A stretch of 64,000 nt of DNA from Eledone cirrhosa (Eukaryota): positions 22,444,001-22,508,000 of the forward strand of contig OZ024754.1 of the NCBI GenBank assembly GCA_964016885.1. Direction: 5' to 3'. The translations under genes and the position numbers were made by a program. Shown here piece after piece: positions 7,021 through 61,391 of this stretch. The stretch's first letter is position 1. Every line of letters begins with the position of its first letter. The notes under the pieces are model-generated. The model was not told the DNA's origin. It made no database searches and was given only the letters and a program-made list of their open reading frames with translations.

Positions 7021-7043
7021 ATATATATATATATATATATATA

Positions 7044-24332: not shown

Positions 24333-26215
24333 TGCTAATGTTCTGTGACGGGAAGATCAGAGACGTGCGGTGTTCCACATTGCAAGGCAGTGTGTCAATG
24401 TAAATCGGGATATTGTTGGAGATAAGTGTGTCCGGAATGATGCTTGTGTACTTAGTGTCACGAATGATCAGAAAAAGGAGGCCTGGAAATGTCATTATGA
24501 GAGACTGATGAATGTGGAGAACGAATGGGAGGGAGAGAGAAATTACCCCCAGTAGACCCAGCAAAGGGATCAGCTATTGATTTTGAGGAATATAGGGTCC
24601 AAGAGCCAATTAAGGAAATGTAAAATGGTAAGCCGCTGGACCGTCAGGGATAGTTGCTGAGATGCTGAAGGCATTAGAAGAAGTAGGAACTAAACTGGTT
24701 GCACGAATCATCAATGAAGCTATATATGGCGGTATCATACCCAAAGACTGGTGCAGCAGTAGTCTCATAAATTGCTACATAGGTAAAAGGGATGCTCTGT
24801 AGAGGAACAATTATAGGGGCATAAAGCTGATGGATCAGGTTATGAGTGGCAGAGAGAATATTAGCGCAACTAATTAGAGAAAGGGTCAAATTAGATGAAA
24901 TGCAGTTTGGTTTTGTGCCCGGGAAAGAGAGGTTCTTAGAGAAGAATAAGCCACTATACTTAGCTTTTGTTGACCTAGAGAAGGCCTTTGATAGGGGAAC
25001 CCGATCTGTCACCTGGTGGTCCCTAAGGAAACTAGGTGTAAAGGAATGGCTTGCGGGGACAGTGCAAGCTATATACAGAGGTGCTGTCAGTAAAGTGAGA
25101 GTAGGAATGGAGTTTAGTGAGGAATTCCAGATACAAATAGGAGTACATCAGGGCTCGGTCCTCAGCCCGCTCTTGTTTATTATAGTCCTCCAAGCCATAA
25201 GCGAGGAGTTTAATGGGAACTTCTCTATGCTGATGATCTGATTCTTATAGCAGAATCAGTAAAGGAGCTAGAGAATACATTTTGGCTATGGAAACAGCAG
25301 CTGGAATCAAGAGGACTGAGAGTGAACATAGCTAAGACAAAAGTGTTGATGAATAGAAAAGAGGACAAAACTCTGATTCCGTTAGGGAAATGGCCGTGTT
25401 CGATATGTAGAAAAAGAACTGGCATAAATTCTATAAAATCCACACAATGCAGATCTTGGGTACACAAGAGATGTAGTGGGATAGCAGGCAAACTAACAGG
25501 TAGGGAAAACTACGTATGCAGCAGATGTACAGGGAAATTTGACAGTAGAAGTCGCATTGATAGACACATTTTTCAAATGCAGATGGGTTCTATAGAGGTG
25601 GTTGATAGCTTCCTGTACTTAGGTGATCAGATTAGCATGGGAGAGGGGTATTCTGAGGCCAGAGTGTCTAGAATAAGGACGGGTTAGAAGAAGTTTGGGC
25701 AGCTGCTTCCTCTGTTGACAAAGAAGTGTATCTACCTGTGTACGAAAGGCCGGTTATATGATGCCTGTGTGAGATGCACGATGCTGCATGGTATTGAGAT
25801 ATGGGCAGCAACTACAGAGGATATGCGATGGCTGGAGAGAAATGAGGCAAGCATGCTCCATTGGATGTGTAATGTCAATATGCGTGAACGACCAATCATA
25901 GATGAGTTGAGAGAGAAACTGTGTATAAGAGGGATAAGTTGTAGCGTGCGGGAGAGAAGACTGTGATGGTATGGACCTGTTATGCTCATGGAGGATGACC
26001 ACTGGATAAAGAAATGCCAAGAAATCTCAGTAGAAGGAAGACGCAGTAGAGGAAGACTACGAAAAACATGGGCGGAGGTGGTGAGAGCAGACCTCAGATC
26101 GTTGAAGCTCACGAAGGAGATGACGAAGGACCATGACAAGTGGAGAGATGCTGTGCTGAATAGGACCAGCCCCACCCCTTGAAAGCAGGGAAGAGCGGAC
26201 GAAAAATGATGATGA

Positions 26216-26266: not shown

Positions 26267-27146
26267 GAGAGAGAGAAGAAGTTTATGAAACGGAAATGCG
26301 GGTATAAAGAATTTATTAGGTAACAATTGTTTCTATAGTGTATGGGTTACCTATACCTCGCTATTTGAATAATATAAAAATATTATCATAAACCGAAGGT
26401 ACACTGCAAGCAAACACACCATGTCGTCAGACCTTTGTATTGGAATGATATGAAAATATTTTATACACTAGATAAAAGAGAAAGAAGGAGGTAGGAAGAG
26501 AAGGGGAAGAGGGAAGTGAGTAAGGGGGAGGGAGTCCTAGGATTTAAGACTGTCAGACTAGTAGAGATTGTAAGGAGAGAATGTTTTGGCAGCAGTTAGC
26601 TTAATGAGGCGTGTTAGGATTGGCGGGGGAAGTAAATTCTTCTAGTGGTGTTGTTTGGACAAAATTTAGTTAAAGGGGTCAAAGTGGTACAGAGTTACAG
26701 ACAAGTTATTGGGGCTATTATAGTAGCAGGTTATTTCTAAAGGGGTCCAGAAAACAGTGTTTAGTACTATTATTATAGAAAGCCATATCTTGTGTATAAA
26801 CATATAAAACAGAAATTTGCAAACGGTGGTGTAAAAAGGTAACATTACATGCATTTAAAAAAAGAAAAAGTCGTTTTCAAACGATGGTTACAGTACAGTG
26901 AACGTTCAATTTTGCTGTTCAAAAGTTTGTTTACCGACGTTAAAATGCAGTATATCTCCATATTGCATAATTTACAGAATCGATGATTTTGCTAATATGC
27001 AGGCGCAGCTGCAATACTTTGCCAATCAAGGGAGAATGCTTGATTGTTCCTCCGGAGCTGCCAGGCTTTATCGGCGAGGGTTGTTACGAAGCGCATTTTC
27101 TCGTGCCTGATCGAAGATCGATGTTGGTATAGGCGAGCTTTGAAAG

Positions 27147-28140
27147 TACGTTAATGTAAAATCGAACCATCCCCATTCCATTATTAAATCTATCCCTAAA
27201 AATATATCCATAAGGATCTCCCGACTGTCGTCTAATTTGCAGACCTTCAACGAGCATGCTGAATATTATAATGACGCACTTAGAAAAGCTGGTTACTGCG
27301 AGAAAATAGAATATCTAGACGATAACCACATAAGTACTATGAATAAAACACATCTAAGTCGAACTAGTATTGCACCACACACACACATCAATAGGCATAC
27401 TAATAGGTGCAAACCAGCAAATAGAGTCAGACGTAGAGAGTACATATGGTATAACCCCGTGTACAATATTTCTATTAGCACTAAGATTATCTCACAATTC
27501 TATACACTAATCAATAAACACTTTATAACTTCACATAAATACTATAAAATCTTTAACTCGCGCACCATTAGACTCTCATACTCCACTGCACCTAACATAG
27601 AACAACTAATTAAAAAACTCAACTCAGCAATACTAAATAAGTACATCCCTAATGACTCAGCGCACCAGCATAGCAACATACAACGCACTAACACGTAACT
27701 ACAACCCCACCAAACTATCCAGGATACTACTGCAAAACATAAAAATAATTGTAACTGCACCAAACCAGGTACGTGCCCACTGAATAACCAGTGCCTAGCA
27801 CGCAATATTGTCTACCGATGTACAATAAATTCCGGAACCAACAAATGGTATTACGTCGGATGTACCGCAACTTCTTTCAAAGCTCGCCTATACCAACATC
27901 GATCTTCGATCAGGCACGAGAAAATGCGCTCCGTAACAACCCTCGCCGATAAAGCCTGGCAGCTCCGGAGGAACAATCAAGCATTCTCCCTTGATTGGCA
28001 TATAAGCATATAAGCAAAATCATCGATTCTGTAAATTATGCAATATGGAGATATACTGCATTTTAACGTCGGTAAACAAACTTTTGAACAGCAAAATTGA
28101 ACGTTCACTGTACAGTAACCATCGTTTGAAAACGACTTTT
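27147..28140 (+). pseudogene. PLE C RT thumb/linker/GIY-YIG remnant
   Basis: YVNVKSNHP..RISRLSS..HAEYYNDALRKAGY; IWYNPVYN..KIFNSRTIRLSYST; CNC..CPLNNQCL..IVYRC..YYVGCT; FCKLCNME. Confidence 0.88.
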
Positions 28141-33371: not shown

Positions 33372-33570
33372 ACCCTCTTTCAAGGGCCGGAGCAAGAGAC
33401 TCTCCACTAGGCTGGCGGACCTGATATGGGACTTGAAGGACACCGGCACCACCTATGATCTCAACTGGAGTATCGTTCAACGTGCCATTGTATATTCGGT
33501 CGACGAGAGGAAGTGCAGGCTGTGCCTGTACGAGGCCATGGAGATAGTGAGATTAAAGGATGACATGTAG
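33372..33570 (+). pseudogene. PLE GIY-YIG C-terminal fragment
   Basis: STRLADLIWDLKDTGTTYDLNWSIVQRA..KCRLCLYEAMEIV, close to the PLE A protein. Confidence 0.8.
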
Positions 33571-33609
33571 ACACCAGCGAAGGTGCACACTTATGTTGGT
33601 TGGAGTTCA

Positions 33610-34567
33610 GCAATGGGCTGCTGAACTCCAACCAACATGGATTCCGTAATGGAAGGGACTGCCTAACGCAGCTCCTGCATCACTTTGACGATGTTTTGAG
33701 AGCCTTGCGAGAGGGCTCCAACACTGATGTCATCTACCTTGATTTCAGCAAGGCTTTTGACGGGGTTGATCATAAGATTCTACTGAAAAAACTATCCAAT
33801 ATTGGTGTCTCTGGAAAGTTACTACAGTGGATCAAATGTTTCCTGACAGACAGAACCCAGCATGTTGTAGTCGAAGGAGTAAAATCAAACCCAGCCAAAG
33901 TCAGCAGTGGCGTCCCACAAGGCACTGTGTTGGGCCTACTTCTTTTCATCATCTACTCTAAGGACATTATTGACATCATCAAGCACAGCAACGTAAGAAT
34001 CTTCGCAGATGATTCCAAGCTCCAGAGGGTCATCAATGAGGGTGATGACCGGACTTGCCTTCAGTCAGACCTACTGGCTGTTATCCAATGGGCAGAAAAG
34101 AATAATATGCTGTTGAAGATAATGAGGATAAGTTTGAATTAATCCACTTTGGTAAAAGGGATGCCCCGAAACTACCATACTCTCTTCCTTCGAGTGAAAC
34201 TCTAGTGGCATCCAACAACATCAGAGATCTGGGAGTAATTGTGGACAACAACATAAGCTGGGCCACTCATATAAACAGCAAGTTGACATGGCCCACAAAA
34301 TGTGTTCCTGGATTCTCAGAACCTTCCAAGTCTGTTATCAGAACCTTCCACACTGTTATCCTTCTCTTCTCCACTTTTGCGGGATTCCACCTTGAATACT
34401 GTTGTCCACTGTGGTCTCCCCACACGAAACAAAGTATCATGAAAGTTGAAGCACCCCAAAGATCAATTACAAAAAAGATAGATGGCATGGCAGGCCTTGA
34501 CTATTGGAGTCGTTTAGAAAAGCTGAACCTTTATTCTCTCCAACGTCGCCGTGAGCGCTACATTATC
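33610..34567 (+). mobile_element. CR1-like non-LTR retrotransposon RT fragment
   Basis: NQHGFRNGRDCLTQLL, DVIYLDFSKAFDGVDH, SGVPQGTVLG, IFADDSKL, RDLGVIVD, LEYCCPLWSP, LNLYSLQRRRER. Confidence 0.88.
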
Positions 34568-36957
34568 TGTCGGCAAATAGAACTATCTTCAACCAGCACG
34601 CGGAATACTATAACTCCGCACTTGAAAAGGCTGGGTACATTGAGAACATATCTTACAATGACCCAACTAGAACCGCAACGCCGCTAAACCTAATCAGACC
34701 CTTAGACGAGGACACCACACCTAGAACAAATACTAACCTAAGACCCTCCTTAGCCGGAAGAACAGGCAACGTTACACACAACTTCCAAGGAGATAAAGCT
34801 ATACTCTCCAACCCCAATAAGGACTCTGAATATTGAACGCGTATACCTAGTAATAGATACCCGAGACATAACGCCAATAGAATAGTAGGAACCCGCATGA
34901 CAAATACGCCTGACCAAACGCACCGACGCAACCACCAAACCACAACAACCACACTAAACACCGTAAAGACCGAAGTAGACCTGTCACATGGTACAACGCC
35001 CCGTACTCTATACACCTTGCCACCAATATACCGGGGACCTTCTTCAGGGCTCTTGAACAATCCTTCCCACACACACATAAATACCACAAGCTCTTCAATA
35101 GACACACTGTCAAATTCTCTTTCTCCACAGCACCAAATCTAGGCGACACAATAGCACACAGTAATAGGACAAACATACGCAAACACATGGTTGCCCCACA
35201 ACAGACCACTAGCACAACCCAGAACGAAACCACACACACAACACAACAACCCACATGCCAGCTCCACACAGAATACGAACAACGGACAACTTGCCATCAA
35301 ACCTGTAACCCCCGATTACAACTGCAAAAAGCCGGTAGAATGCCCACTAAACGGGAAGTGTCTCGTTAAAAACATTATTTACAGGTAGCGATGTCACAGC
35401 TGGCAGAAAAGAGTACTCCTATATAGGGGCGACCTCGACTACGTTTAAGGAACGCTGGTACAACCACAAAAGTTCCTTCAAAAAGGCTCAAACGATCCCA
35501 AACTAGACTGGCCGTCTTGATCTGGGACCTCAAAGACAAGAACATTGAATTCCAGATCATATGGTCAGTTAAAAGACGCGTGGCCGAACTCCCCAGCGAC
35601 AGAAACCACTGCAGGTTATGCCTGGCTGAGGCGGCTGAGATCATTAAATTGAAATCTGCTATAAACTCTAGGTCTGACATAATTATAAATTGTAGACACA
35701 CCAGGTTGAACACCTTCTCTGCACAAACATTCGGCAGAGGGCCGCACACTAACCTTGACGCAACATAGTGATAATCACCTTTGCTCTGTCTCACCGTCAG
35801 TGCATTTGTCTTATATAACATGTAACCTTTGTAAGTTCAGATTTTGTAAATATCATGTCGCATCCATCACCCCCACCAAAAGACACATCGCCATACACCC
35901 CTCATATTAGTACCATTGTGTTCTATCTATCCTCTTTGTCAGGTTTTACCTTGTAAACCACCGTAACATGCGATCCTGTGAATATAATGTTGAAAATATC
36001 ACCCCATCGCCACCACCACTACCTCCATACACATCGCTATACGTACACCATCCCTCATTCACAACCTTGTTTTCCCCGTGTTCCCTATGTCATTTTTTAA
36101 CTTGTAATCCATCGTAAAATTCGATCCTGTAAATAGTTTGACGCTCCCACCACCACCGCCACCACCAGGCACATCTCCAGACTTCAACAATCATTAACAT
36201 CACCAACACATATCATCCCTCCCTAAACAACGCATGTGTGTGTAAGTATATTTATTTGTACAACGCCATCTCCACTGGCTCTCCCCCTCTCTCTCTATTT
36301 ATATATACATGTGTATATATACAACGTATTTGTCAGACTAAGTGTGTCTATGTATATATCTCCTTATTGAATTTGACATCACCAACACATCCACCACGCC
36401 ACCATAAACACCATTACCATAAACAACAACACCACACCCACACCCACACCATAAACAACAACACCACACCCACACCCACACCACACACAATAACCAGCCA
36501 CAAATACACGCCAATCTGTCTACCGACAATCCAGCACCCCCACCCCACCGCCCACTTCAGCCTGCGACCGTCACCACCAGCTTATCACCCCCCCACATAC
36601 ACTACAGGCAAAAACATCCCTATGAACTAATCCACCAATCAAAACAAACTTTATTGACAAATATATGAACTTCTGACTTTATCATACAGTATGTATTCAT
36701 TTTCTACTAGCACTACAAGAGGTCCAACGAGCCGCAGATTACAGAGTCGGGTAAGATCGATACAGATCGAACCTTGAGCTGATGAGTGGCGAAACGCGCG
36801 TCACCAACCAATAAATGTAATGAAGGAGTAACCAATCGTCCTTGTTATCCTTTCAATATATTACACTCTGTCTAGCTCTACACCTCGACACTGAAGTGAA
36901 CCTAAACATCGAGTGCTCACCTGGGTGAATCTACAGTAACTCCAAGTTACACTCCCT

Positions 36958-37379: not shown

Positions 37380-37638
37380 GTATAGAAATTATTGTGAGCG
37401 TGAAGCCAAGAGTATTTCATAATATATAAGTGACTATAACGTCAAAATGGAAAATAATTAACGTAAGATGTGGGAAAATAATTCAAACTCAATTCAAAAA
37501 AAATCAAGACAGATTTATCCATAGAATTTTGTGAAATCCATGGAAAAAGCCTTAACTCTGAATAAAATAATAAAATAATATATATATATATATATATCTT
37601 AACCATTTAACATCTCAGGGTATGTCATGTATCATTAT

Positions 37639-37691
37639 ATTTTGTCTGATGAGGACGTACTGTTGTACATCCGAAATATGTATAATAAAAT
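37639..37691 (+). ncRNA. Minimal type I hammerhead in an orphan PLE terminus
   Basis: AUUUUGU-CUGAUGA-GGACGUAC UGUU GUACAUCC-GAAAU AUGU AUA-AUAAAAU. Confidence 0.75.
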
Positions 37692-37744
37692 GTAATTGAT
37701 CAAAAGAACATCTATTTTATTAATACTTATATATATAGATATAC

Positions 37745-40305: not shown

Positions 40306-42410
40306 GGGTGTCTTATTAGAAAATTACGTCTCACAGAGGAATTCTTTGACAAGGAGAATAACGACCAATCAATTGTACGGAATAAAAGCAGCCACAACCC
40401 AACAAAAGGTAGAAACAGAGTTCTAGACAAATTTTGTGTCCACATAGCTACTTTCCCATATCATGAACTACCGCAACCTAAACCCAAACCCAACACGAGT
40501 TGAAGGGAATGGGAGATTATCCATGAACTAAAAAACAATACAGACATTATAATTAAGGAAGCGGACAACGGAAGTACTGTTGTCATTATGGATGCTGAAA
40601 AATATAAAAATTCTATGTTCTCTCTCTTACAAAATACTAATTACTATGAAAGAGTAAAAGACTACCAGCAATCAAAAACAATGACCAGATTAAACACACT
40701 GATTTGTCGATACCAGGAAGACTTAACTAAAAAGGAACGCGATTATTTAACACATTTTGAATACAAAACCAGCAACCTTTACGGACTTCCGAAGATCCCA
40801 AAGTGTAAAATAATTAACGATGCCTGTAAACAATCCACCTCAGCCTGCGTGAACACACAATACCCCACAGACCTTAAATTAAGACCAATTGTAGCGGGCC
40901 CACAATGTGAAACACACAGACTGAGCAACTTTATAGACATACTACTAAAACCAATTCTCAAACACATACCAAGCCTTGTAAGAGACGATCTGGACCTCTT
41001 AAACCACCTCCCCAAACATGTCAACAACGACACTATTATTGTGTCTTTCGATGTAGTGAATCTCTACGCAACGATCCCACACTAATACGGACTATAAGCA
41101 ATAGGATTATGGTTAGAGAAATATCCCAATGAGATACCTGGCAGAATAGAAAAAAGCTTCATCACCGAGAGATTAAAATTTATCTTACAGAACAACTTTT
41201 TTTATTTCGATGGCAGTACTTACAAGCAAATATCGGGGACTGCGATGGGTACAAAAGCCGCTCCAACTTATGCCAACTTAGTCATGGCATACTTAGAAGT
41301 CCAGATATATAAACAGTCCAAATCAAAATACGGATTGAACTTTCACAAATATTTATAAGGGAATTGGAAACGCTACTTGGATGATTGTCTCATTCTTTGG
41401 TCCCACACACTCGACCAACTGAATTATTTCAAACATTTAATTAACGGCATCAATAACCACATCCAATTCACAATGGAATACAGTCAAGATCAACTCCCAT
41501 TTTTGGACATCTTAATCTTAAAAAAAGACACAAATATTGAAACAGACATACACTACAAACCAACAAATTCCAAACAATACCTGCAAAGCACACGAAGACG
41601 AACATTCCTTTTAACCTAGCAAGAAGAATTTGCACAATTGTCTCCAATTATGAAACGCGAAATAAAAGACTTCAAGAATTAAAGGAAATTCTACTCGAAA
41701 GACAGTACCCACCATTACTAATAAATAATGGAATAGAAAGGGCTAAAGCAATAGGCATTGATGAATTACGAAAACAGAAACAAATTCAAGGTACATCCAA
41801 TATTCTATCATATATCTCAACACACAACCCAAGAAATGCGGACGCTTACAACACTATTCACAAGAACATTCCACTATTGAAACAAGACCCAAGAATGAAA
41901 AAAGCCCTTGAAACACACAAAATAATCAAAAGCAAAAGACAACCGAAATCACTGAAAACATTACTCACCAATGCCAAATTACCTACCACAAACCCACAAC
42001 CAACTGTCAAAAAATGTGGTCGCTCTAATTGTGGAATCTGCACTCACCTCATTGAAGGCAACACGTATACATTTCAATCAGGACAAAATTTTTTTGTAAA
42101 AAATCACTTCACTTGCTCATCAAAAAATCTAATTTATGTCATTAAATGTAAAGGATGCAATGAATATTATATAGGACAAACTAAATTCACACTCAGAAAC
42201 AGAATGACAGTTCATCGCCAACAATTACGAGATCCAACCACGAGACAGATACCACTAAGCGCACATCTAGACATATGCGCAAGTAATAAGACACTTAAAT
42301 TCCAAGTCTTCCCATTTTACCTTTGCGTTGACAATACAACAGAACAAATACGAATAAATAAGGAAAATATGTTTATTCAAAAATATAGACCAGCATTAAA
42401 TATGGTTTAA
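40306..42410 (+). pseudogene. PLE D RT + Cys-linker + GIY-YIG, with stops and a frameshift
   Basis: IIIKEADNGSTVV; YGLPKI; LRPIVAGP; SFDVVNLYATIPH; GTAMGTKAAPTYANL; WKRYLDD; LPFLDI; CGRSNCGIC; NLIYVIKCKGCNEYYIGQT..RMTVH. Confidence 0.93.
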
Positions 42411-43916: not shown

Positions 43917-45300
43917 GTTAAAGAGTGAAGAATAACATGGTCAACAGTGCAAAAAGGGTTTTATTTGCAGTATTAACAATTGTTTCATTGGTTAAGTTGT
44001 CTTAAAATTGCTAATCACTTGAAGTTGTGTCACTCAATTTTAAATAAGATGTATGCTGAACCAAATCATCAGAAAAAACTGTTTTAAATTATTCACAACG
44101 TTTGCAAATTCAAATTACAACAACATTAATAAAGAAAGAAAAAGAACAAGATGAAAAAAGAAAAAGATAGAGAGAAAAAAAGAGAAAGAAAGAAAGAATA
44201 AAAAGAAGAATAAAGAAAAGATGAATAATAATAATAATAAAAAATGATAAAAAATAAATTAAAAAATGTTGTATGTGTGAGAAGGAAATGAACATAATAT
44301 GATTGTTGATTGTTGAAAATATTTGTGCTGTTGGTGGTTAAAATATAAAGATATGATAGTATAAACATGAAAGTATTAAATATATTCATATATGTATTAT
44401 TTAAATTAATACATTGATGAATTGGAAGTTATATTAGAAGTGAAGATAATACGATCGGTAATATTGTAAGAGATGAAATATATTTAGGAAAAGAAATTGA
44501 AAGATAGAAAATGAAAGAGAGAAAATATAATAGGTTATGATGTTGATTCATTGGCAGTTAATAACAATAATAACAGCAATGATGATAATGGGTTATTATA
44601 ATAGACTCAGGTGGTATAATTTGAATTATGGAATTGTTGGGTCCAATCAAGTTGATTTGAAATTATTGAATGTATTCGCTACATTATGACTACAGAAAAT
44701 TGACTGTTCAATTTTGCTGTTAAGCAGCATTTTGTCATATTTTAAAATATGGAATAGTTCCATATTACAAAGTCTACAATGAGACATACCAATTTTGTAG
44801 GCCATTGCTCCTGACAATTTAGACCAGTTAATCCTGTATTCTTGATTTGTATCTTTGAGCTGCCCGATTTTATTGGCGAGCGTTGTTGTATTCATTAGTT
44901 TACGTTTTTTTATAGAATGTCTGTGGACGTACCAACGTTTTTTTAACTCCCACGCCATAGAACCTATGTAGTGCCATGCTAAGTTGCCTGAATTTATAGT
45001 ACATAGGTACACTATATTAGATTCAAGGCATTTATTTTGTAGTGGGCACTTATCCGGTAAGTAACAGTTACATTTTGAGGCCTTCCTATGTGCCGGTTCA
45101 GCGATGCGGTTTTGTATGTTGTTATGTATGGGCTGAGATTTGGGTTTGTTTATGTATTGTTGTGATGTGTTCTGACGTGTGTGTGGTTGTGATGTTGTTA
45201 TGTGAATGTGTTTTGTATTTGGTGTTATGGTGTTTGTTTGTAGGCTATTTGTATTAGAAATTCTTTTAATTTTCTGTATGTGTGATTCTTACCGGATAAG
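43915..45300 (-). mobile_element. PLE 'E': GIY-YIG C-terminus + 3'UTR
   Basis: CPLQNKCL..IVYLC..HYIGS..KKRWYVH..CRLCNME..CSH (44647-45060). Confidence 0.85.
43968..44081 (-). ncRNA. Hammerhead ribozyme with about 79-nt helix II (PLE E)
   Basis: CUGAUGA-U UUGGUU...UAAAAUUG...CAAUUUUA...AACCAA U-GAAAC AAUU GUU-AAUACUG, then AATAAA. Stem I is imperfect. Confidence 0.7.
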
Positions 45301-45321
45301 TATACACCAAATACACATAAA

Positions 45322-45399
<78 letters not shown>

Positions 45400-46411
45400 T
45401 TAAAACAATGAAATAAAAAATCAAGTCATTAGAAATATACTTCACTGTTTTACGATCGTTTCTAGGTGATGATAATACATCGTAACTATACTTCGATATC
45501 GATCTATGTAAGGTTAGTTACAAAATATCAGATAAAGAGAATATTTACTTACATGCATATCACCAGCTGTTGTCAAAAGCAATAATAATTTTATTCAAAA
45601 TTAGTAGTAAATTAGTATTATGTTTAGTTCTATGCCCTTGTTTGGAGGTAGTTGAAGAACTAACCAATCAGATTGTTTTATTCCATATGATGTTAAGATG
45701 AAAAATAATTCACTTTAGTTGAGGTCATGACTCTTTGAAAGAAATGGTTGAATGGTGTTAATAACAGAATTGCCATAAAAAATCTATTAGGAAGAAAGGG
45801 ATTGTCAAATTGATAGTTGAATGTATCTGGGATAGTGAGGTTTAAAAGGAATGTAAAAATTAAATGTTGAGTTGTGTTGTATGGAGTTTTTAGGTGAATA
45901 TAAATTAAGGTCATGGCTAGGAAAGATAGTATATTAAAAGATGAAAATTATAATAAGATAATGAAATACAGAAATACAATAATATAATAATATAATAATA
46001 TAATGTAACATAATATAGTATGGTGTGGTAAATTGTACTTAGTATAATACAGCGTTTGATACGCCTTAAAATACCTTCATGTATGTTTATGTATAAATAA
46101 TCAAACTCAGATAAATACATGTTGACATAGTCAAAACGCAGAAATTTCATAGATCACAAAGTGCATATACCCATATTATAGATAGAGGTATAGTTATATT
46201 GATACTCAACTAAAAATACACATACACATAAATAGATGCAAATATATACATACATCTATACATGTGCATACAATCATATACACATATATCTATATATATA
46301 TACATTTACATATACACACCTATACACACATATATATATATGTATGTACACACACATATATGTACACACACATATAAACACTCATACACATATACTCGCA
46401 TATACTCGCAT

Positions 46412-46453
<42 letters not shown>

Positions 46454-46669
46454 TCCCATATCATAGATACATAGATACATATTTACTCATGCAATTACGG
46501 GTGGTTGTGTACCTTGTTGCCCTTAGTCAGTAACGCATAAATCTAAGCAAGCTAAAACATTAAAAGGTAAGAAATAAGCATGAATGTGTATAATTAGGAG
46601 AAAGGGATACTAACAAATGTTACGCCATATAGAATTATAGTGTGTTGCTATTTAGAATATTTAATTAGT

Positions 46670-48487
46670 ATTTAAATGTTTTTCGTATACGGTGATTACA
46701 AACTATAATCAGTTCCTGTCTTTTATTCAATAAATCGTCCTTAGATTTAGTAATTTCCAAGATCTCCCCTGAACATAACCTGCATTCCCTCCTGTTCCCA
46801 AGATATGGAGTTCTTTGTAGAATGGTGTTTCATGATAGCTTGAAATCTATTTTTTTCTTTTTATAGTTATTTACTGCTTCAGTTAAAGATGTGATGTTAG
46901 CTAGTTTAGTATTGTTAAAACTACTAGAGTGTGCGTAAAATCTTTTCTTAAATGTGTTTGATGTAGATCCTATATATGTTTTGTTGGAGTCAGTAGTAGA
47001 AACAGTGCATTTATATATTACATTATTAATCAAACAGTTGCCATTTAAGGGGCAAATGCTTCTATTTCTGCAATTACAACCATACGTAAGATGGTTGTTG
47101 GGGGTACCTATACCATTCTCATTAATCCTTGAGCTATTCCTATTGTAATTAATGTTAGTGGGTGGTTTAGTGCTAGGGTTGTATTGTGATTTTGTGTTCT
47201 GTTGTTTTTGTGTTGGTGATTTGGGTGGTTGTGTTTTCCAGGTTGAAGGATTGTATTATTTGTCCTTTTAAAAGGTGCAGTCCTATTTAAATTATGTTGT
47301 GGTGGTGTGGTCATATTATTTTTAATTTTATAAATGTTGTAGTTGCTTATTTTTTGCTGGAGATTGTTTGATGTAGAGTATGAGAATTTAACAGTATACC
47401 TGTTAAATATTTGGTGGTAGCTGTGATTTGGTGGAAAATGTTTATGTAGAATTTCGAAGAATTTTGGGGGGATTTGTCCAATAGTTTGCAGGTTGAAGGG
47501 TGCGTTGTACCATGTTATGTTTCCTTTGCGGTTTTTAGTTAAGTTCTTATTACCACTTATATTATTGTGCTGTGTTTTAGAAGAATTCCTATGGTTAGTA
47601 TTCGTATTTGTGGAATTTGGTAAACTACCGTGGTTGTATTTGGTTTTATTATTGGGTAGATTATGAGATTTTGAATGCTTGGTATTCATATGTGAGTTGA
47701 TAACATTGGCCATAGATCGTGTAGTAATAGTTGTTGTGGTTTTTCGGTTGTTTGGTGTAATAGGATTAACCCCTTTAGGTATTTGTTTCAATGGTTTTTT
47801 TGGTGTTTGTAGTTTTTGCTAGGTTTTATATTTTGGTCCATAGTAGTGTTGGGGATATATGAGATTTTTTCTTTATATCCACTTCTAGTTAAGGCCTCGT
47901 TGTAGAAGGGTGCATTATTATAAAATATATCTTCATTGGAAGATAATTTAGAAAGTCTAAGAGATATGTTATATACTAAGTTTTTTAGTATAGAGCCAGG
48001 GTGGTTAGAGCGTGAATGTACATAGTGTAGATTCTGGTTGGGTTTGTGGTAAGGTTGATAAATATTCGTAGAGAGGTCTAAGGTAACGTCAAGGAAATTA
48101 GCTACTTTTGAAGTGTTTTCAAAGGTGATGTTAAGGTTGTAGTAGTCCTTGAGGAATTTTCTAATTTGTTTTTTGTTTTTCTCTATATTGGAATTGCTAA
48201 GATTGTTAGATAACAATAGACAATCATCCCGATAAAGACCACCTTTGAGGTGGGGAAAAGAGGAATGAATATTATAGAGGAGAAATAGTCCAACGAGGTC
48301 TGTAACTTGAGCAGAGTCCATGGATCCCATCGTAATATCGAATAAGTTGTTATATGTGTTTCTTGTCCAGTGTTCTTCTTGGAAGTTTAGTAAGGTTTAT
48401 CTAGCGTATATCTGATCTATTTCTGGCGAAGATCAGTGCTTTGTTTAAAAGAATTGGAGAAATCGAAGAATAGTAAAAATTGATGTC
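46670..48487 (-). pseudogene. PLE I RT/GIY-YIG remnant (related to PLE B)
   Basis: MGSMDSAQVTDLVGLF..GGLYRDDCLL..NFLDVTL..SNHP; ITWYNAPFN; CNC.CPLNGNCLINNVIYKC..YIGST. Confidence 0.92.
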
Positions 48488-48548: not shown

Positions 48549-48735
48549 GCGGTGGATTGGCAGTATCGGTCGAGGGTCGGACGCCATGCTTTCCAGCATA
48601 GTTACGTCCCTTTACGATCTGAGTTCAAATCCCGCCGAGGTTGACTTTGCCTTTCATCCTTACGGGGTCGATAAAATAAAGTACTAGTAATGCACTGCGT
48701 AATTGCTGGCCTTGTGCCTAATGTAGAAACAATTA
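48549..48735 (+). mobile_element. tRNA-derived SINE, full length
   Basis: A box TGGCAGTATCGG, B box GAGTTCAAATCC, central domain and AAACAATTATATTATT tail. Absent from the mirror arm (about 46005). Confidence 0.9.
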
Positions 48736-49452
48736 TATTATTATATTATTGCATTTCTGTATTTCATTATCTTATTATAATTTTCATCTTTTAATATACT
48801 ATCTTTCCTAGCCATGACCTTAATTTATATTCACCTAAAAACTCCATACAACACAACTCAACATTTAATTTTTACATTCCTTTTAAACTTCACTATACCA
48901 GATACATTCAACTATCAATTTGACAATCCCTTTCTTCCTAATAGATTTTTTATGGCAATTCTGTTATTAACACCATTCAACCATTCCTTTCAAAGGGTCA
49001 TGGCCTCAACTAAAGTGAATTATTTTTCCTCTTAACATCATATGGAATAAAACAATCTGATTGGTTAGTTCTTCAACTACCTCCAAACAAGGGCATAGAA
49101 CTAAACATAATACTAATTTACTACTAATTTTGAATACAATTATTATTGCTTTTGACAACAGCTGGTGATATGCATGTAAGTAAATATTTTCTTTATCTGA
49201 TATTTTGTAACTAACCTTACATAGATCGATATCGAAGTATAGTTACGATCATCACCTAGAAACGATCGTAAAGCAGTGAAGTATATTTCTAATGACTTGA
49301 TTTTTTATTTCATTGTTTTAACTTATATCATGACTCTGTTTTCCTTTAATGTTTTATTCTTTTCCGGGATTTATTTTAACCTACAACATTTTCAACATAT
49401 GGATTACATTGAGTTCTTCATGCAGACTAGACCCCACAACTTACCGTGGATA

Positions 49453-50534: not shown

Positions 50535-50537
<3 letters not shown>

Positions 50538-51018
50538 GTATATATTACACAAAGAGAAGTGTGTTACACAGTGAGATGTGTGTAAAGAATTATTACGAGT
50601 GGTTTTACCGTTACTGTATCGGGAACAACATCTACAGGTTAGCAATTAAATAGAAAAAAACCAATTCAGAATCAAATATCTGGATTAGAGTTTTAAATCA
50701 CAAACCTTATAACTATATTTTGCTGATACGAATCTCGTTCGTTTCACCACCTATATGTGAAGTATATCAGGTCACAGGATCCTCAGTCAGCAAATGCGAG
50801 CACTGAACACTACACATCTAACCTCATGGATAGAGAGATTGCTAATAGACACGCTGGCCATATATATATACAGTGATCTTCCAACCTTCATTGGTATTTC
50901 ATCGCTTTAAAGACCATACACCTCCGGTTGGTGCGAGCAACAGCACTCCTATCTCCTCTCCTATCTCCTATCTCCTCTCCTATCTCCATCTCTCTCTTTA
51001 AGATTGGTTACACTTGAA

Positions 51019-51055
<37 letters not shown>

Positions 51056-51720
51056 AATATATTACACAGAGAGAAGTGTGTTACACAGTGAGATGTGTGT
51101 AAAAAATTATTACATGTGAGTTTAACCGTTACTGTATGGAGAACAATACCTACAGGTTAGCAATTAAATAGAAAAAAACTAAGTCAGAATCAAATCTCTG
51201 AAGTAGAGTTTTAAATTACTAACCTTATAGCGTTAATCTTGCTGATCCGAATTTAGTTCGTTTCACCACCGAAATGTGCGGTATAACAGCCCATAGGATC
51301 ATCAGTCAGCAAGTATGGGTACTGTCCACCACACATCTAGCCTAATGGATAGAGAGAAAGCTAATAACACGCTGCCCAGAGTAGGGCGAAATCACGTGTT
51401 ATGTGCACCAGATAACGGCTCTCTTGAATTAGGCTAGATGTGTGGTGGACAGTACCCATACTTGCTGACTGATGATCCTATGGGCTGTTATACCGCACAT
51501 TTCGGTGGTGAAACGAACTAAATTCGGATCAGCAAGATTATAGTTATAAGGTTAGTAATTTAAAACTCTACTTCAGAGATTTGATTCTGACTTAGGTTTT
51601 GTTCTATTTAATTGCTAACCTGTAGGTATTGTTCTCCATATAGTAACGGTTAAACTCACATGTAATAATTTTTTACACATATCCCACTGTGTAACACACT
51701 TCTCTCTGTGTAATAAATTT
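50535..51720. mobile_element. ORF-less hammerhead-bearing repeat family 'J': two diverged direct copies plus one inverted copy
   Basis: 50535-50860 resembles 51055-51375. 51428-51720 is the reverse complement of about 51058-51345. Confidence 0.8.
50719..50794 (-). ncRNA. Type I hammerhead with full stem III (family J; further copies 51238-51312 - and 51461-51536 +)
   Basis: UUUGCUGA-CUGAGGA-...-GAAA CGAA CGAGA UUCG UA-UCAGCAAA. The other two copies have GGA at the cleavage triplet. Confidence 0.82.
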
Positions 51721-52745
51721 ATATTTGAGCCCAGATGAAAATTCTCTGTTCTTCTTCGAGCTATTATTATTATTACTGTGAACTGTGGAATACTTTAATT
51801 CCGATCTTTGTATATATATATATATATATATATAGATATATACATATATATATATATAAATTACACAATAATCAAAGCTGTGTTCAAATCATTTTATTGC
51901 TGACAATCGTTTCTTCCAAACAATCGTTTGGAATCATCGGTGCAGCAGCAATGTTTGTACATATAATTAACCTCCTATTCAACTGAACATATAGATACAC
52001 GGATATTAATGTTGTCAACAGTTTCGTACTTACAAGGTGAAATGGATGCGACATAGATTACAAAAGAATTGTACAATAATTAAAATTAAAAATTAAAAAT
52101 TATAAAGGTACAGAGTGGAATGCAAGCGACAGAGATTATAAGGGAATAGTATAACAATTAAAGAGGCATTAAGGTAGAAAGTTACTCGTAAAATGAAGAC
52201 ACTAGCAGTACATATGCAAGCGTTAAGAGAGTGCAAATGCATTAGTCATATATAGGAAGAAAACAAGCAATGGTATTAGGCATATATAATTTTTTGCAAG
52301 GCAAAGGTATCACATGAAATAAGCATATTAGGCAAAGCTGTTTTTGTATTAAAACTATGTGTTTATGGTGGATGTAGTGTGACTGTTGTTTCTGTAATGT
52401 TCAAATGTATATGTGCTGAGAGTATCAATGTTATTTTTATTTTTTCCATTACATTGTCTATGTTTTATTTTAGTGAATGTTTTTAATCAGTCACAGTCAT
52501 GGATTGTACACTGGTCCTATTATATTGCTATCAGGGTTTCAAGTTTCTGTGGAGTGATTTTACTAACGGTTTAATTTCCGGAAGTGAGTTTGATCTATAT
52601 TAAGAGGAGCTAATACGAAAGGGGAGGTAACTAGCGATTACATTGTATATGATAGGAATTAGAAAAATGTAAAGTTGTTTACAGCTCCAATCTGCTAAAA
52701 TCTTTGTGTTGATATACATTATATTACAAGTGAATCCCTTTTATA

Positions 52746-52860
52746 TAATTGTTTCTACGTTAGGCACAAGGCCAGCAATTACCCAGTGTATTACTGGTAC
52801 TTTATTTTATCGACCCCGTAAGGATGAAAGGCAAAGTTAACCTTGGCGGGATTTGAATCC
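52746..52860 (-). mobile_element. tRNA-derived SINE, 5'-truncated
   Basis: Matches the SINE 3' half; flanked by repeated GAATCCC(C)TTTTATATAAT (TSD-like). Confidence 0.85.
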
Positions 52861-53941: not shown

Positions 53942-54130
53942 GGCGGTGAATTGGCAGTATCGGTAGAGGGTTGGACGCCATGCTTTCTAGCATAGTTACG
54001 TCCCTTTACGGCCTGAGTTCAAATACTGCCGAGGTTAACTTTGCCTTTCATCCTTACGGGGTCGATAAAATAAAGTACCAGTAATGTACCGGGTAATTAC
54101 TGGCCTTGTGCCAAAAGTAGAAACAATTAA
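53942..54130 (+). mobile_element. tRNA-derived SINE with about 20-bp TSD
   Basis: Full SINE. ATTAATTTCATTAGTGCTAT occurs at about 53907 and about 54126. Confidence 0.9.
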
Positions 54131-56345
54131 TTTCATTAGTGCTATTATCATTATTATTATTGCTACTAGAAATCTCTGGTACTATGTTGCCCTGTAAGTT
54201 TACCTCCTGCTGTGATTTAATTAGTTGGAAATAATTATTAATCTTCCTTTTATTACTACTAGCTATATGGTATGCTATATTAGGTGTGGTAGAGTAAGAA
54301 ATTTTAATGGTATTTTTATTGATAAGATTATGGTATTTATGGCCGACTGGGAAGTTCTTTTCCAAGATTGAGAAGAAAGCCTTAGGTAAGTTTGTAGAGA
54401 CATTTAGATTGAAAGGGGATTGAAGAATGTATTAGTTCTTCTATTTTTGTTTTTTGTAATTTTATTTGAAATATTGTTTATATTTCTGTTTATACTATTA
54501 TTGTGGTGTTTATTCTGGTGCGAGTTAAGTTTGACGTTACCCTTTGTATTAGAGTTAGAGTGACTAGTACTTTTATTATTTTTCCTCATGGCCATATTGT
54601 GAGAAATAATGTTTTAACTATGTGATTTTATAGGTAGAAATTTAATCTCATTTTTATGTCCTGATTTAGCTAAGGCCTCATTATAGTATTGGGAATTATT
54701 GTTAAATATGGTTTCGTTATATGATAGATTAGAGATTCTATTTGATATTCCTTTAGTAATTGAGTTTAATATAGATTTAGGGTGGTTAGAGTTGATATCT
54801 ACGTAAAGTAGTTTTTCGTTTGGTTTATGGAAGGGTGTATATATTTTAGAGTTCAGGTAAAGGGTAACATCAAGGAAGTAAACGTTAACTTCCTTAAATG
54901 TGTGTTTATGGTTATTTCAGCGTTCTTTGAATTTTGTAGAAGTGGCACCAATATAGTTAAATATTTTGTCTCTAGTTTTAACTGTGCATTTATAAACTAC
55001 GTTTTTGTCTAAACAATTATTTTGTAAAGGGCAGTTTGATTTGATTCTACAGTTACATTTCTGGAGTTGTTGTTGTTCGGAACGGTACTATTATTCTGAC
55101 TATTGTTGTTAGAAATATTATTATTGCTATTTTGGTTAGTTTGGTTAGGGTTTAAATTTAAGTTTCTATTATTAATTCTATTTATATTTTGTGCTATGTT
55201 CATAGTAGTAGAGTAGGATAGTTTTATAGTGTGTCTGTTAAAAATAGAGGGGTATCTGTGGGCTTTAGGGAAACATTTATCTAGTGCTTTAAAGAATAGC
55301 TTTGCTGAAAGTGTTTTTAACGCTTAATGAGAATGGGGGAGAGTACCAAATAATATTTTTAGTTCTAGTTTTTTTGTTTGGTTTAGCGTTTAAGTTAAAT
55401 TGTTTATTATTATTATAATTAATTCTAGGATGATTTGTCATGTTATTGTTATCTATGTATTTAATTTTATTCGAGTATCCTGCTCTATGTAAAGCTTCAT
55501 TATAATATTCTGCTTTATCATCAAAAATATTTTTATTAGCAGAGATGTGTGAAATCCGTTGTTGGACGCTATTGGCAATAGTGTTTTTTTATATTTCTAG
55601 GATGATTAGAATTGAAACTTACGTAATTTAGATTTTCGTTAATTTTATGGAAAGGATAGTAAAGACTTGTGCTAAGGTTTAATGTTACGTCTAAGAAGTT
55701 AACGATTTTGTAGTTATTCTCTATTTCTAACTTGAGGTTGTAGTTTTTGAAAAATTGTATTATGGATTTCCTTTTCCTATTAATTTCACTATTGCTATAG
55801 TTTTCAATTAAAAGTAACATATCGTCACGATATAAACCTCCGGTTATCTTTGGCATTTTCCTATGCAGTACATTATTAATGAATAATCCAACGAGGTCCG
55901 CTACTTGCGCCGAGTCAGATGATCGCATAGTAATATCAAAATTGTTTTTTCTGTCGGCTCTTGTCCAGAGATGATTATTAAATTCTATTAGGGTTTTACG
56001 TGCTGTTAGAATTATATTCATTTAATCACTAGATAGGTCTGTATGTTTAGACGCGTAGATAAGTACCTTATTAAGTAAACTAGGAGTAATAGCCATTTGA
56101 ATGAATTTTTGTTATGTTTTAATTTTATGTTATTGAACCAATCTATAACTTCATTAGTACCGTTCCATAGTTTAAGGTGTGATTTTTCTTTAAGTAATGG
56201 TATAATTCTATCTAATATATGTTTGCTAATTATGCCCAAGTCCGATTTAGATGGTGGATGAGTCTGACTGGTAGTTCAATTTTAAAATTTCTTTTGTGCT
56301 CCTTCAGGTTAATTTTCGGTTTTCTAGGTATAAAGTGTTCAGTCC

Positions 56346-58194: not shown

Positions 58195-60944
58195 AGAGAG
58201 TATTCAAGTTTGCTTGAAGCATTGTGGAATAATAAGATTTTTTGGGGGGCGTTTTGGGAGCCTCAACAATGCAGATGGGTAAATCTCCGGGTAACAGAAT
58301 CCGGTGGTGAAGAGAGAGATGTAAGGGAATGTAGAATGAGATGTATAGTGTGTAGAGGAACGTAGGAAAGAGCGTAAAAAATAAAAATAATAACACGAGA
58401 TAGAGTTACCTTGGGAGAGATTTAATTGTCCCTATATTTCGGATTCGCATCCATCAACTGGGGGAAGTTATCTGTCGGAGAGGAACGGTAGGTGGCTTCT
58501 GTTGTCCGCTGTTTGTGTGTAACTGAGGTATTCTGTAGAGCGCACGTGCGCGCGGAATAGGTGCCGTCAAGCAAAGGTCGAAGCAGTTCTTTTTATTGTG
58601 GGAGTGGGATGGCGTTAGCTGTCAATCTACTACCTATATGTACTGTTTTTTGGTACTAGCAGTGTAGTATAGTAGTATAGTAGTAGTTTGCCTGGTTGCT
58701 TGTTGGTCGGTGGATGGTGGGGGTGCTAAACACACAATAACAATCGTTCTAATGCCACTGTGTGTGTGTGTGCGTGTGTTGTTGTCTCGTTTGTTTACAC
58801 CAGCCACCTCGTCTCGCTTCTCTTGGATCGGTTATTTATTTGTGGTCCTAGGCGTTTGACCTAAAGTGCTTCCTTGATTCGTAACGTGCCGACGTTGCGT
58901 TCTGTCGCTAGCACTGTGACAATGGGCCTTCCGTCTTTGTTTCCGCATTTGCTTATGTGTTTCCGGAAAGACGGGGTCCTAGTGTTGATGTGCTCCTTGA
59001 TTCGGATATGTAGCGGCCGGATTGTGCTACCGATACAGTAGTGGTTGCACTTATCACATTCTACCTTGTATACAACGTATGTGCGTAAGCAACAGTTCGT
59101 ATGGCGCATCGGACAGCTTCTGAGGGAACACGCGTCAGTCGATTTGCCGGGTTTCCTGGAGAGGCATCTCCGCAGGGAGGGGCCCGAGTGGGCCAGGTGG
59201 ATGTCGAGGCCCTCTCTCCGTATAGCCCTGCGGATAGCGCTGGTGGTTTTCTCGCCCAGGTGTGGTATTTTAAGGAAGCACTTGCCTTGGGTGTTTCTCT
59301 GCCTCTTGCGTCAGGTGTCTCTTACTCTGTTTGTGAGCGAGGCTGGGTATCCGTTCGTCTCCAGCACTCTGAGGAATCGTTTGGTGTGGGTGACACTACT
59401 CACGGGATCGCTGCATCTGTTTTTAATTCGCGTGATCTCTTTTAGCACTGTTAGGGAGGACAGACTTGTAGTGGACGAACAAGTCCTTGCAGGCTGCCTT
59501 GCGGTAGAAGTTGGTGTGGAACCCTCCCTGCTCCGTGATGTTGATTCAGAAGTCGAGGAGGACAAGGGACCCATCGTCGTTGGGGTGTTCAACACTGAAA
59601 ACAATATTCTCGTCCGTGTTGTTGAACGTCTCATAAATTCCGTTCGCCATCTCCTGGGAAGATGTGAGGATGTGGATGACGTCCACGTACCTTGAGAAAA
59701 AGGCGGCGGCGTTGGGGTGACAGGTGTTGAGTGCCTTGCGCTCGAGGCTGTTCATGTATGAGCTCGCTAGCACACCTGATAGGCTTGAGCTCATGGGCAG
59801 CCCCGAGATTTGCCGGTATGTTTGGTCGAGAAAACTGAAATACGTGTTGTCAACGACGACAGATAGGACTGGTGGATGTGAGTGGGGGTGAGCCTGAAGC
59901 AGTGTAGGTAAATTGAACGCGTTCCATCAGTATATCAACGGCCGGGAGCGCCGGGACCGAGGTGTAAAGAGCGACCACATCAAGGCTGAAGGCATACCTG
60001 TGAGCCTTTCTGGTGTCGGGATCCATCTGATGCAGGCGCTCCAACACCTCCTCGGAGCTGTTTACGTGTCCCGGCAAGGTGTCTAGGATGGGTTTGAGTA
60101 TTCTGGCTAGGAGCCATGAAATTTTGTAGAGCGGCCCTTCCACGCTCGATACAATAGGTCTGATCTTCAGGTCGGGTCCCTGTTTGTGTGTTTTAACAAG
60201 GTGGTAGAAGGCGGGTAGTCTGCTGTTCCTCGTGAGGAGGTTGTATCTGAACTTCTTCGGGAGCTTCCGCCGGTCACAGATCTTGGTCCAGGCGGCGTTG
60301 ATGTGCTCCTCGATCTACGCGGGAGTGATTCCGTGACCTTGGAGTAGAGGTTGTCATCGTCAAGGTGTTGGAGGGCCAGGGTGTTGTAGGCCTCTCTGCT
60401 GATGACGCAGAATTCTTTTCCCTTGTCGGAGGGAGGTAGATGAGGTTCTTCGATTTCAGGCTGGAGAGAGTGGTGAGTTGAGATTTAGTGAGGTTGTGTG
60501 TTGTCCGTGTGTGTGTGTGTTTGTGTAGGATATCAGAGTGTTTTAACCTGATGAGTTTGGTGTCGAGTTCGTGGTTGGTGGGTGGGGGGTGGAATGGGTT
60601 GTCGAGGTGGTGAGTGGGGAACTTGGGGCGGGTTGTGTGGGCGCTGTTATTTTCCGTGGCGCTGTTGATGGCGGTCACCCATTTAAGTTGGTAAGCGGCT
60701 CGACAGAAGTTGGCTTCGATGTCGAGTTTGAGTCTGTCGTCGAGCCGCTGTGAGACGATGAACTTGGGTCCGAGGCGTAGGAGTTCCAGCTCGTCGTTCG
60801 TGAGGGTGCCGGTTAGGTCGGTGACCAAGTGCGTCGCATTGTTGAGGTGTCGCTCGGTGTTGGTGGATGTGGCGGCGGCGGTTGTTATGTTGCAGTTTTT
60901 CACGTGGTTCTGGTCTGTCTGTTTGTTAGTGTCGGTGTTTTCGT

Positions 60945-60945
<1 letters not shown>
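58195..60945 (-). mobile_element. GC-rich PLE 'M' of a third clade (RT + Cys-linker + GIY-YIG), frameshifted
   Basis: LLRLGPKF; FYHLVKTHK..IRPIVSSVEGPLYKISWLL; FSLDVVALYTSVP; GLPMSSSLSGVLA; FFSRYVD; CSLRSCPM..CCL..VVYKVECDKCNHYCIGSTIRPLHIRIKEH. Decayed hammerhead GGAU GCGA AUCC GAAAUAUAG at about 58428-58465. Confidence 0.9.
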
Positions 60946-61028
<83 letters not shown>

Positions 61029-61391
61029 TATATATATACAATAAAGTATATCCATAGAATCATTTGATAAAATATATACATTATTTCCTCTCCCAATCAG
61101 CATAATCAACCACACAAAAAACCAATTAAACAAGGCTATAAGATTAAAAGACACCTATGAAGAAACAATAGATAAATAAACGACACCTATCTATTCGCGA
61201 TCAACAGCTATATTTACCCATCAATTCTAATAGCACGTGAAAATCGATTAAATATATCGTCAACCATACACAATTAGGTATAAAATCAAAGTTAGAAGAA
61301 AAGATGTATATAAACATACCAAAATTACGTTTCTACCCCATGGGGATTCATTCGCTTTTGGAAATATCCGATCAAGGATAAATTCACGAGC

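Follow-up and report, generated by a model that had tools for sequence, protein, structure and literature searches.

The locus analysed here raises the question of how a pairing between the 5' flank of a hammerhead ribozyme and its loop II is maintained, and what such a pairing would do to the ribozyme. The window, which is the whole 64-kb stretch of DNA that was analysed, lies within a 3.0-Gb genome and is rich in microsatellites with many broken retroelement frames. The first-pass annotation of this DNA described a short covarying pseudoknot in three hammerhead copies and proposed either a selected tertiary helix or an on/off switch.

Hammerhead motifs in the window

A descriptor scan found three type I hammerheads in the window (Table 1). 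Each has the CUGAnGA and GAAA core, stems I-III and an open stem I. The 10.1-11.1 position, which is paired in the standard type I hammerhead, is U.U in these ribozymes; this is described as a tolerated natural variant (PMC3088659; PMC7229834). Stem II consists of the U.U plus two C-G pairs and the 8-bp stem I is compensatory, with a U-A/C-G change at the outer pair, both as annotated. The 5-bp stem III of the annotation holds for copy 1, but the copies with GGA have 4 bp with A15.1 opposite G. A CAC/GUG hairpin was rejected as the true stem II, with ~20 nt between A9 and the stem and no covariation. The core patterns gave 347 and 233 exact matches in the genome vs 0 for the reversed control; by these pattern counts, the three motifs are more than chance. 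No Rfam family reached its gathering score, and the 46 matches obtained when E was relaxed to 10 did not include a hammerhead model. Other hammerhead-like cores with a longer stem II and a weak stem III occur at 37634-37696 (+), 12003-12063 (+) and near 37172 (-).

The cut sites had been read correctly as GUA in the copy at 50719 and GGA in the two near-identical copies. Among 108 distinct hammerheads of the family, 101 have GUA, with U16.1 and H17 at the cut site, as does copy 1; copies 2 and 3 lack this combination. The GAAA with U16.1/H17 is kept in 106/108 and the whole core in 90/108. GGA was rejected as a family version or functional variant, being found in 2/108 hammerheads, both in the window arms. 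Both GGA arms are likely dead.

The window copies had been described as a tandem arrangement of a ~330-bp repeat, and neither part of this description held. The window is not a tandem array; it has two separate insertions, one of subfamily B (copy 1) and, ~190 nt away, one of subfamily A, whose inverted arms (copies 2 and 3) meet at 51428-51430 and which runs to 51820. The two subfamilies are 84% identical. The length of 330 bp is that of the 5'-truncated window copies only, and the unit of the family is 544 nt. The arms at 51055-51346 and 51428-51720 are identical over the central 113 nt and have 9 differences beyond (p ~0.012 if uniform). Gene conversion between the arms is possible from this pattern, and would explain the GGA shared by both. 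A core-breaking change common to both arms is present in 3/21 inverted pairs (L037, L227 and the window arms).

Table 1. Features of the three family copies in the window
Feature	Position	Strand	Remarks
Copy 1	50536-50860	-	Subfamily B, 5'-truncated; separate insertion flanked on both sides by TA repeats; blastn vs full B unit, 97.8%
Copy 1 hammerhead	50719-50794	-	Type I with complete core and GUA site; cleavage predicted from the hammerhead consensus between 50727 and 50726
Copy 1 strand F (5' flank)	50795-50819	-	
Copy 1 strand L (loop II)	50753-50776	-	20 bp predicted with F
Copy 1 strand D (downstream)	50614-50636	-	Partly complementary to F; not favoured in the predicted fold of copy 1
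Copy 2	51053-51430	-	Subfamily A, inverted arm of second insertion, TA repeat at end
Copy 2 hammerhead	51238-51313	-	GGA at cut site; predicted inactive (U16.1 requirement, PMC3088659)
Copy 2 strand F	51314-51338	-	
Copy 2 strand L	51272-51295	-	
Copy 2 strand D	51132-51154	-	
Inversion junction	51428-51430		3 bases common to both arms of second insertion
Copy 3	51428-51820	+	Subfamily A, other arm of second insertion; extends beyond the end in the first-pass annotation (51720) into TA repeat
Copy 3 strand F	51436-51460	+	Final 6 nt (51455-51460) are the pseudoknot strand of the first-pass annotation
Copy 3 hammerhead	51461-51536	+	GGA site; predicted inactive
Copy 3 hammerhead parts	Stem I 51461-51468/51529-51536; core 51469-51475; stem III 51514-51526	+	
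Copy 3 strand L	51479-51502	+	23 bp with F; 4 nt remaining before GG of stem II
Copy 3 strand D	51621-51643	+	Complementary to F at 16/17 positions
Copy 3 junction segment	51762-51815	+	Unit junction, occurring at each end of a full-length copy; also one of the two sites where 3' ends cluster

The 544-nt element

The family, referred to as family J, has a period of 544 nt with units of 540-569 nt and a GC content of 0.35-0.37. The genome contains at least 347 copies by the exact core pattern, and DNA searches yielded initial lists of 1,057 and 1,203 candidates. Four subfamilies (A-D) were sampled, with pairwise identities of 79-99%. As annotated, the repeat is ORF-less; the family units contain no sense-strand ORF of more than 58 codons, and no tRNA or tRNA head was found in them.

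Copies were compared at 89 distinct places, a sample of mostly best matches which is biased to long copies. An inverted partner is present at 58, a piece exceeding one period at 41 (42 before a spurious join between window copies 1 and 2 was discounted) and two tandem hammerheads at 4. In a position-ordered set assessed by eye, 16/24 are inverted and 9/24 cross the unit junction. At the 3' end 123/151 copies run into TA repeats, with clusters at 180-199 and 280-299 nt past the cut site. The 5' ends are evenly spread with no pile-up at the cut site (4/151 nearby). Long pieces continue into the preceding unit and not into an ORF.

The anatomy of the family agrees in most respects with that of the metazoan non-LTR retrozymes, to which the window copies had been likened. 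By the ORF, tRNA and GC results, the units code for no protein and appear to lack an LTR/PBS/PPT organisation, the GC content is low, and autonomous Penelope-like elements are represented in the genome by reverse transcriptase (RT) and GIY-YIG remnants in the window. Head-to-tail units that each carry a type I hammerhead are found in the family but not among the window copies, so the resemblance holds for the family and not for a tandem arrangement in the window. The unit is longer than the ~150-450 nt of that class. The family also shares 5' truncation, inverted partners and TA-repeat targets with Penelope-like pseudo-LTRs, but at the 150 loci compared, apart from one chimera (below), it was not found attached behind an RT/GIY-YIG ORF.

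A link to a Penelope-like ORF, which the annotation proposed to look for in copies elsewhere, was not found. When 18 Penelope-type fragments from the window were used as queries, a same-strand match within 300 nt was found at 1/150 loci. This locus (L211) is a chimera, in which a subfamily C piece beginning inside loop II is joined on the same strand to a broken Penelope-type RT. No autonomous partner element sharing the 544-nt unit was found with these 18 fragments at the 150 loci, and the contigs of two DNA sequencing runs gave no additional information. Partial tandems, inverted truncated partners and TA targets have been described for Penelope-like elements (PMC8557442), and animal retrozymes have been proposed to be non-autonomous derivatives of these elements (bioRxiv 10.64898/2026.07.22.740005). 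Judged by its sequence organisation, the 544-nt repeat likely belongs to the animal non-LTR retrozymes and would be mobilised by a Penelope-like element.

Several other repeats were noted. In subfamily C (L180, L186, L208 and other loci) a 16-nt unit in loop II is repeated 2-5 times and the core is intact. An abundant short interspersed repeat occurs in the window at 48549-48738, 52743-52857 and 53943-54000 and beside many family loci; one copy is inserted in family element L190. Broken Penelope-type RT and GIY-YIG frames lie at 14727-15888, 18470-21089, 27144-27698, 40504-42410, 44647-48396, 55569-56021 and 58861-61059. Of the Penelope-type frames that were scanned, 41541-42407 alone has a GIY-YIG domain by Pfam. 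Broken LINE-type frames (AP endonuclease, RT and a PHD-like finger) lie at 6984-9825 (-), 24846-25687 (-) and 33564-34687 (+), and a long G-skewed tandem repeat at 1802-4399 gives rise to low-complexity frames.

Covariation of the 5' flank and loop II

In both window versions the beginning of loop II is complementary to the 5' flank, and the two double-sided changes and the extension given in the first-pass annotation were all reproduced. The annotation also called for covariation to be followed across more copies. The five inner pairs next to stem I are formed in 77, 78, 78, 76 and 76 of 78 anchor-aligned sequences, respectively. Pair 2 is U-A or C-G, and pair 5 is C-G, U-A or U-G. An extra U in the flank occurs together with an extra A in the loop in 18/18 sequences, and the loop A is present in 0/60 others. 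The sixth pair is held in 40/78. The flank and loop II sequences change while the complementarity stays, as judged by sequence comparison.

Folding indicates that the pairing continues to 19-23 bp in family copies, an extent which the earlier annotation missed. The annotated pseudoknot is the inner end of this predicted helix. The outer helix shows little covariation of its own, with two pairs kept in only 56/78 and 43/78 sequences and another in 29/78. By a computed count, 90% of the cells are paired vs 32-39% in slid controls, with 13/78 rows (subfamily C) out of register. In 38 full units, from which the extra-U/A insertions had been removed, the flank:loop II helix is the sole one with two double-sided changes among 228 possible helices of at least 5 bp. 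A parallel control gave 1/241 helices with two double-sided changes; therefore, the scan alone is modest evidence, and its weight comes from the position of the helix having been named beforehand. Placed on the tree, each double-sided change amounts to one event or two. The flank helix was absent from the RNAalifold structure of 24 whole units, in which subfamily C was out of register.

An out-of-sample test used 17 family regions chosen for unusual loops (one with a truncated flank), and the prediction was set before looking. One loop type matched 5/5 pairs in 8/8 loops. The new compensating flank bases were absent in 7/7 predicted cases, leaving C.A at pair 5, and three copies retain only 3/5 inner pairs, i.e. 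have two inner mismatches. No inner pair is therefore indispensable. All 16 regions with an intact flank nevertheless form duplexes of -13.9 to -21.8 kcal/mol. From the sequences compared, it is therefore the whole helix, more than any individual pair, that selection seems to maintain. As in the hammerheads of Perreault et al., a pairing of at least 4 bp that joins loop II to the stem I side is conserved, with exceptions in the regions with unusual loops. The proposal of a selected helix is thus supported by covariation within the family and by recurrence in diverged families (below), and weakened by the exceptions in copies with unusual loops.

Related hammerheads in the genome

A long-loop pattern that excludes family J gave 275 further matches vs 1 for the control, and 40 of these loci were fetched. 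They fall into several groups that are 60-75% alike or unalignable. In many of these groups the flank pairs with most of a 26-31-nt loop II, and a 14-24-bp helix is found across diverged groups. The same core with a flank:loop II helix is present in group G (L245, L253, L257, L290-L296, L302-L308), in group H (L254, L298, L300, L301, L327, L328) and in L252 and L258. The pairing starts ~8-9 nt from the core (stem I plus gap) in most complete ribozymes across groups.

When each flank was tested against the loops of all groups, its own loop was the best partner vs any other group's loop in 24/34 elements (11/11 in family J and 13/23 outside it), compared with 2/34 for a control segment; 10/34 elements failed the test. 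Against shuffled loops, z was -3 or lower in 10/15 complete ribozymes outside family J, with loop II up to 35 nt, and in 17/27 family J copies, vs 1/188 chance matches from other collections. The 188 negative controls came from pattern scans of metagenome and viral contigs, which contained 0 complete hammerheads among 97 and 91 testable matches, among the matches listed. Two high-scoring rows outside family J (L240 and L259) were rejected as examples of this helix because they are fold-back junctions; the figure of 10/15 is used since a count of 16/42 includes them. At the level of sequence, the shuffled-loop result is the strongest evidence that the long helix is maintained beyond its inner end.

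Other groups have a different architecture. A pair of families with a 44-nt loop II (L241-L251, L256, L309) has an 11-bp hairpin inside the loop and a 2-3-bp stem III, with tandem pairs 466-467 nt apart and a period of ~466 nt. This hairpin group has at most a short flank pairing and no clear long helix. The same U.U and CC/GG core with a short loop II of 5-6 nt has 7,501 exact matches in the genome (e.g. L450-L469). These minimal hammerheads have a palindromic loop III and often occur as close inverted pairs; 4/20 unselected loci lie 198-444 nt behind a Penelope-type ORF. Stem III is sound in the long-helix groups J, G and H, and tiny and near-palindromic in the short-loop and hairpin-loop groups. 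The architecture of family J had been called unusual. With 7,501 matches a stem II of U.U plus 2 bp is ordinary in this genome, and it is already published; only the long helix is unusual. Since so many hammerheads share this core and some of them lie behind a Penelope-type ORF, the core of family J is likely derived from a local Penelope hammerhead, by lengthening of stems I and III and of loop II.

Predicted folds and possible function of the long helix

The long helix is the minimum-energy fold in 9/11 copies, the exceptions being two of subfamily C; the 3' half folds into its own hairpin and stem I is absent. When the RNA ends 60 nt past the cut, at least 14 bp are expected in 22/22 copies of subfamilies A, B and D. 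Lying directly against stems I and II, whose positions its boundaries follow, the helix uses none of the bases of the core or the stems. A gap of 4-6 nt separates the far end of the helix from the GG of stem II. By a reach estimate for ten copies, taking 2.8 A for each pair and 5-6.5 A for each free base, 3-8 pairs must open before stem II can close in cis. In rough energy estimates for the same number of copies, with an assumed pseudoknot penalty and neither Mg2+ nor tertiary contacts included, the most favourable cis fold retains 14-18 bp at a cost of 5-13 kcal/mol relative to the hairpin; for the 6-bp pseudoknot alone the cost is 14-25 kcal/mol. Since a helix of ~20 bp dominates the predicted fold, the choice between a tertiary helix and a switch does not concern a pseudoknot of 5-6 bp.

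The most likely function of this helix is that of a lock that doubles as a prop. The helix would fold first, block the ribozyme when fully zipped and serve as a stem I-II pseudoknot once its far end opens, thereby protecting circles; this model is given about an even chance of being correct. It builds on dispersed copies that are often longer than one unit, end in TA repeats and often carry an inverted truncated arm. By analogy with known retrozymes in cleavage, circles and a helper element, read-through transcripts would be cut at the hammerheads and ligated to circles, which a Penelope-type enzyme primed at TA-rich sites would reverse-transcribe. The helix is predicted to fold first as a hairpin, with the 5' strand of stem I and the CUGAnGA core in its loop. 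Since the fully zipped helix is predicted to leave too few bases for stem II to close, the ribozyme would be off. Folding in cis would be blocked until the helix frays, is displaced or is assisted by a second copy. Cleavage would then require opening of the far end, through fraying of 3-8 bp or capture of the flank by a downstream strand, after which the inner helix would stack on stem I and support the weak stem II. Pseudoknots are described as rescuing hammerheads with a 1-2-bp stem II (PMC3088659). Such a lock would prevent re-cutting of the ligated circle.

A candidate for the capturing strand (strand D) lies ~90-115 nt past the cut site and is complementary to the flank. When it is added, the predicted fold becomes flank:downstream plus stem I in 9/22 copies of subfamilies A, B and D, and the catalytic fold is still 5-18 kcal/mol above the minimum. 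Strand D is the best partner of its own flank in 11/34 elements, and it shows no significant covariation in 38 full units. It was rejected as a general feature because it is unsupported outside family J and part of group G. In the predicted folds, strand D may possibly be the key that opens the lock. In subfamily C the 16-nt duplications slacken loop II and the long helix is not the predicted fold. This subfamily has nonetheless spread, which argues that a lock, if there is one, is dispensable.

The same geometry could also belong to a constitutive extended pseudoknot, in which the helix would only stabilise the active fold, its far end would fray freely and there would be no off state. A helix that abuts stems I and II and uses none of their bases is consistent with this, as are the nearly constant stem I plus gap of ~8-9 nt across groups and the concentration of covariation in the inner pairs. 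A pseudoknot of this kind is reported to be used by ~40% of hammerheads and can pre-form (PMC3088659), and on the optimistic estimate the cis fold costs only 5-7 kcal/mol, with Mg2+ and tertiary terms still to be counted. However, the known examples have 4-6 bp, so that a helix of 14-24 bp in diverged groups needs a further reason, and copies with two inner mismatches exist. A helix that only stabilises is considered to be on the unlikely side.

Whole circles fold better than shuffles in 11/11 units (z of -2.3 to -7.6; 12 shuffles each), which raises the alternative that the helix is part of a general self-paired RNA fold, for stability or recognition by the RT, and that the ribozyme is near-silent or dispensable for new insertions. 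The core defects shared in 3/21 inverted pairs and the lack of a 5'-end pile-up at the cut site point the same way, and 8/9 Xenopus dimers are reported not to have cleaved (bioRxiv 10.64898/2026.07.22.740005). This explanation is very improbable; the full core is kept in 90/108 copies, stems I and III retain pairing with compensation across family copies, and the helix boundaries follow stems I and II.

The energy estimates also allow a split ribozyme of two copies. The stiff helix would separate the two halves of each ribozyme, and the tip loop of one unit would bind the GAAA, stem III and cut-site strand of another, so that multimers would be cut and monomer circles spared. No unzipping is needed, and a rough estimate of -0.4 to +6.3 kcal/mol per monomer (18/20 at or below +3) is lower than that of the cis routes, making this the cheapest route on paper. 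The sound stem III of groups J, G and H, compared with the classical-dimer stem III of the short-loop and hairpin-loop groups, would fit this arrangement, but that correlation rests on five groups only. In addition, the energies are crude estimates, only 4/89 genomic places hold a dimer with two hammerheads, and the length constraint is removed in subfamily C. A two-copy ribozyme is decidedly unlikely for this family. It is likewise unlikely, although not to quite the same degree, that an animal retrozyme superfamily uses loop II as a rigid spacer of two turns, so that a unit could not form its hammerhead by itself and two units would swap halves across loop II in a double hammerhead of a new kind that would cut multimers and spare the monomer circle.

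Comparison with known hammerheads

The family is like the metazoan non-LTR retrozymes (PMC7229834; bioRxiv 10.64898/2026.07.22.740005) in being AT-rich and ORF-less, in carrying a single type I hammerhead in each unit, in having more-than-unit copies and in sharing its genome with Penelope-like elements. The axolotl HHR_Amex2 likewise has U.U at the base of stem II (PMC7229834). The unit of 544 nt differs from the 150-450 nt of the metazoan retrozymes described in these two sources, and the mostly dispersed copies of 1-1.8 units with inverted arms differ from their arrays. In family J a 26-31-nt loop II and a predicted long flank helix replace the loop 1/loop 2 contacts of the retrozymes (PMC7229834).

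The hammerheads of Perreault et al. 2011 (PMC3088659) are alike in having a Watson-Crick helix that links the sides of stems I and II, a 2-bp stem II and U10.1.U11.1. Pseudoknots between stems I and II in all three hammerhead types, with a 1-2-bp stem II and U10.1.U11.1, were already published there, and the human C10 hammerhead is described as needing a 5-bp pseudoknot for activity (PMC3088659). That helix has 4-6 bp and is activating, whereas the helix of ~20 bp in family J is predicted to be too long to coexist with stem II in cis. In the Pistol-like PK hammerhead (Zhan et al. 2024, PMC11300833) loop II also pairs 5' of helix I and stem II is reduced. Its partner is the loop of a separate helix IV hairpin with an A-rich linker, and the helix has 6 bp (PMC11300833); in family J the flank itself abuts stem I with no linker or hairpin. 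The minimal hammerheads of Penelope-like pseudo-LTRs (Cervera and de la Pena 2014, PMC4209133) share the U.U and CC/GG core and the insertion habits, and combine a palindromic loop III of the dimer type with a stem I of 3-4 bp. Family J differs from them in its 8-bp stem I, 5-bp stem III, long loop II and lack of a linked ORF.

The satRPV, viroid and plant retrozyme systems are plant RNA replicons with type III ribozymes. In satRPV, the satellite of barley/cereal yellow dwarf, an alternative structure of the stem I/II region reportedly attenuates cleavage and a double hammerhead is said to be needed, in work attributed to Miller and Silver (1991) and Song et al. (1999). Unlike in satRPV, viroids and plant circles, the block in family J would act by length, pair no core base and operate in an animal genomic element. 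Plant retrozyme circles are described as blocking their own ribozymes by self-pairing (PMC7229834). Most animal retrozyme circles are predicted to leave the ribozyme free, with some mussel circles excepted, and the same source leaves open how animal circles avoid self-cleavage (PMC7229834).

Significance

The literature searches and the main texts consulted gave no example of a long (two-turn) helix between flank and loop II in animal retrozymes. Relative to that literature the new feature is the long helix; the U.U stem II and short pseudoknots were already known. Rfam overlooks these hammerhead motifs. Should the helix do no more than stabilise the active fold, it would be a known design with a longer pseudoknot. 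If the lock is true, it would be a natural length-based off switch, or a new route to two-copy cleavage, in a model ribozyme. The covarying helix of ~20 bp, common to several diverged families (233 and 275 exact core matches), is thus a candidate lock for animal circles.
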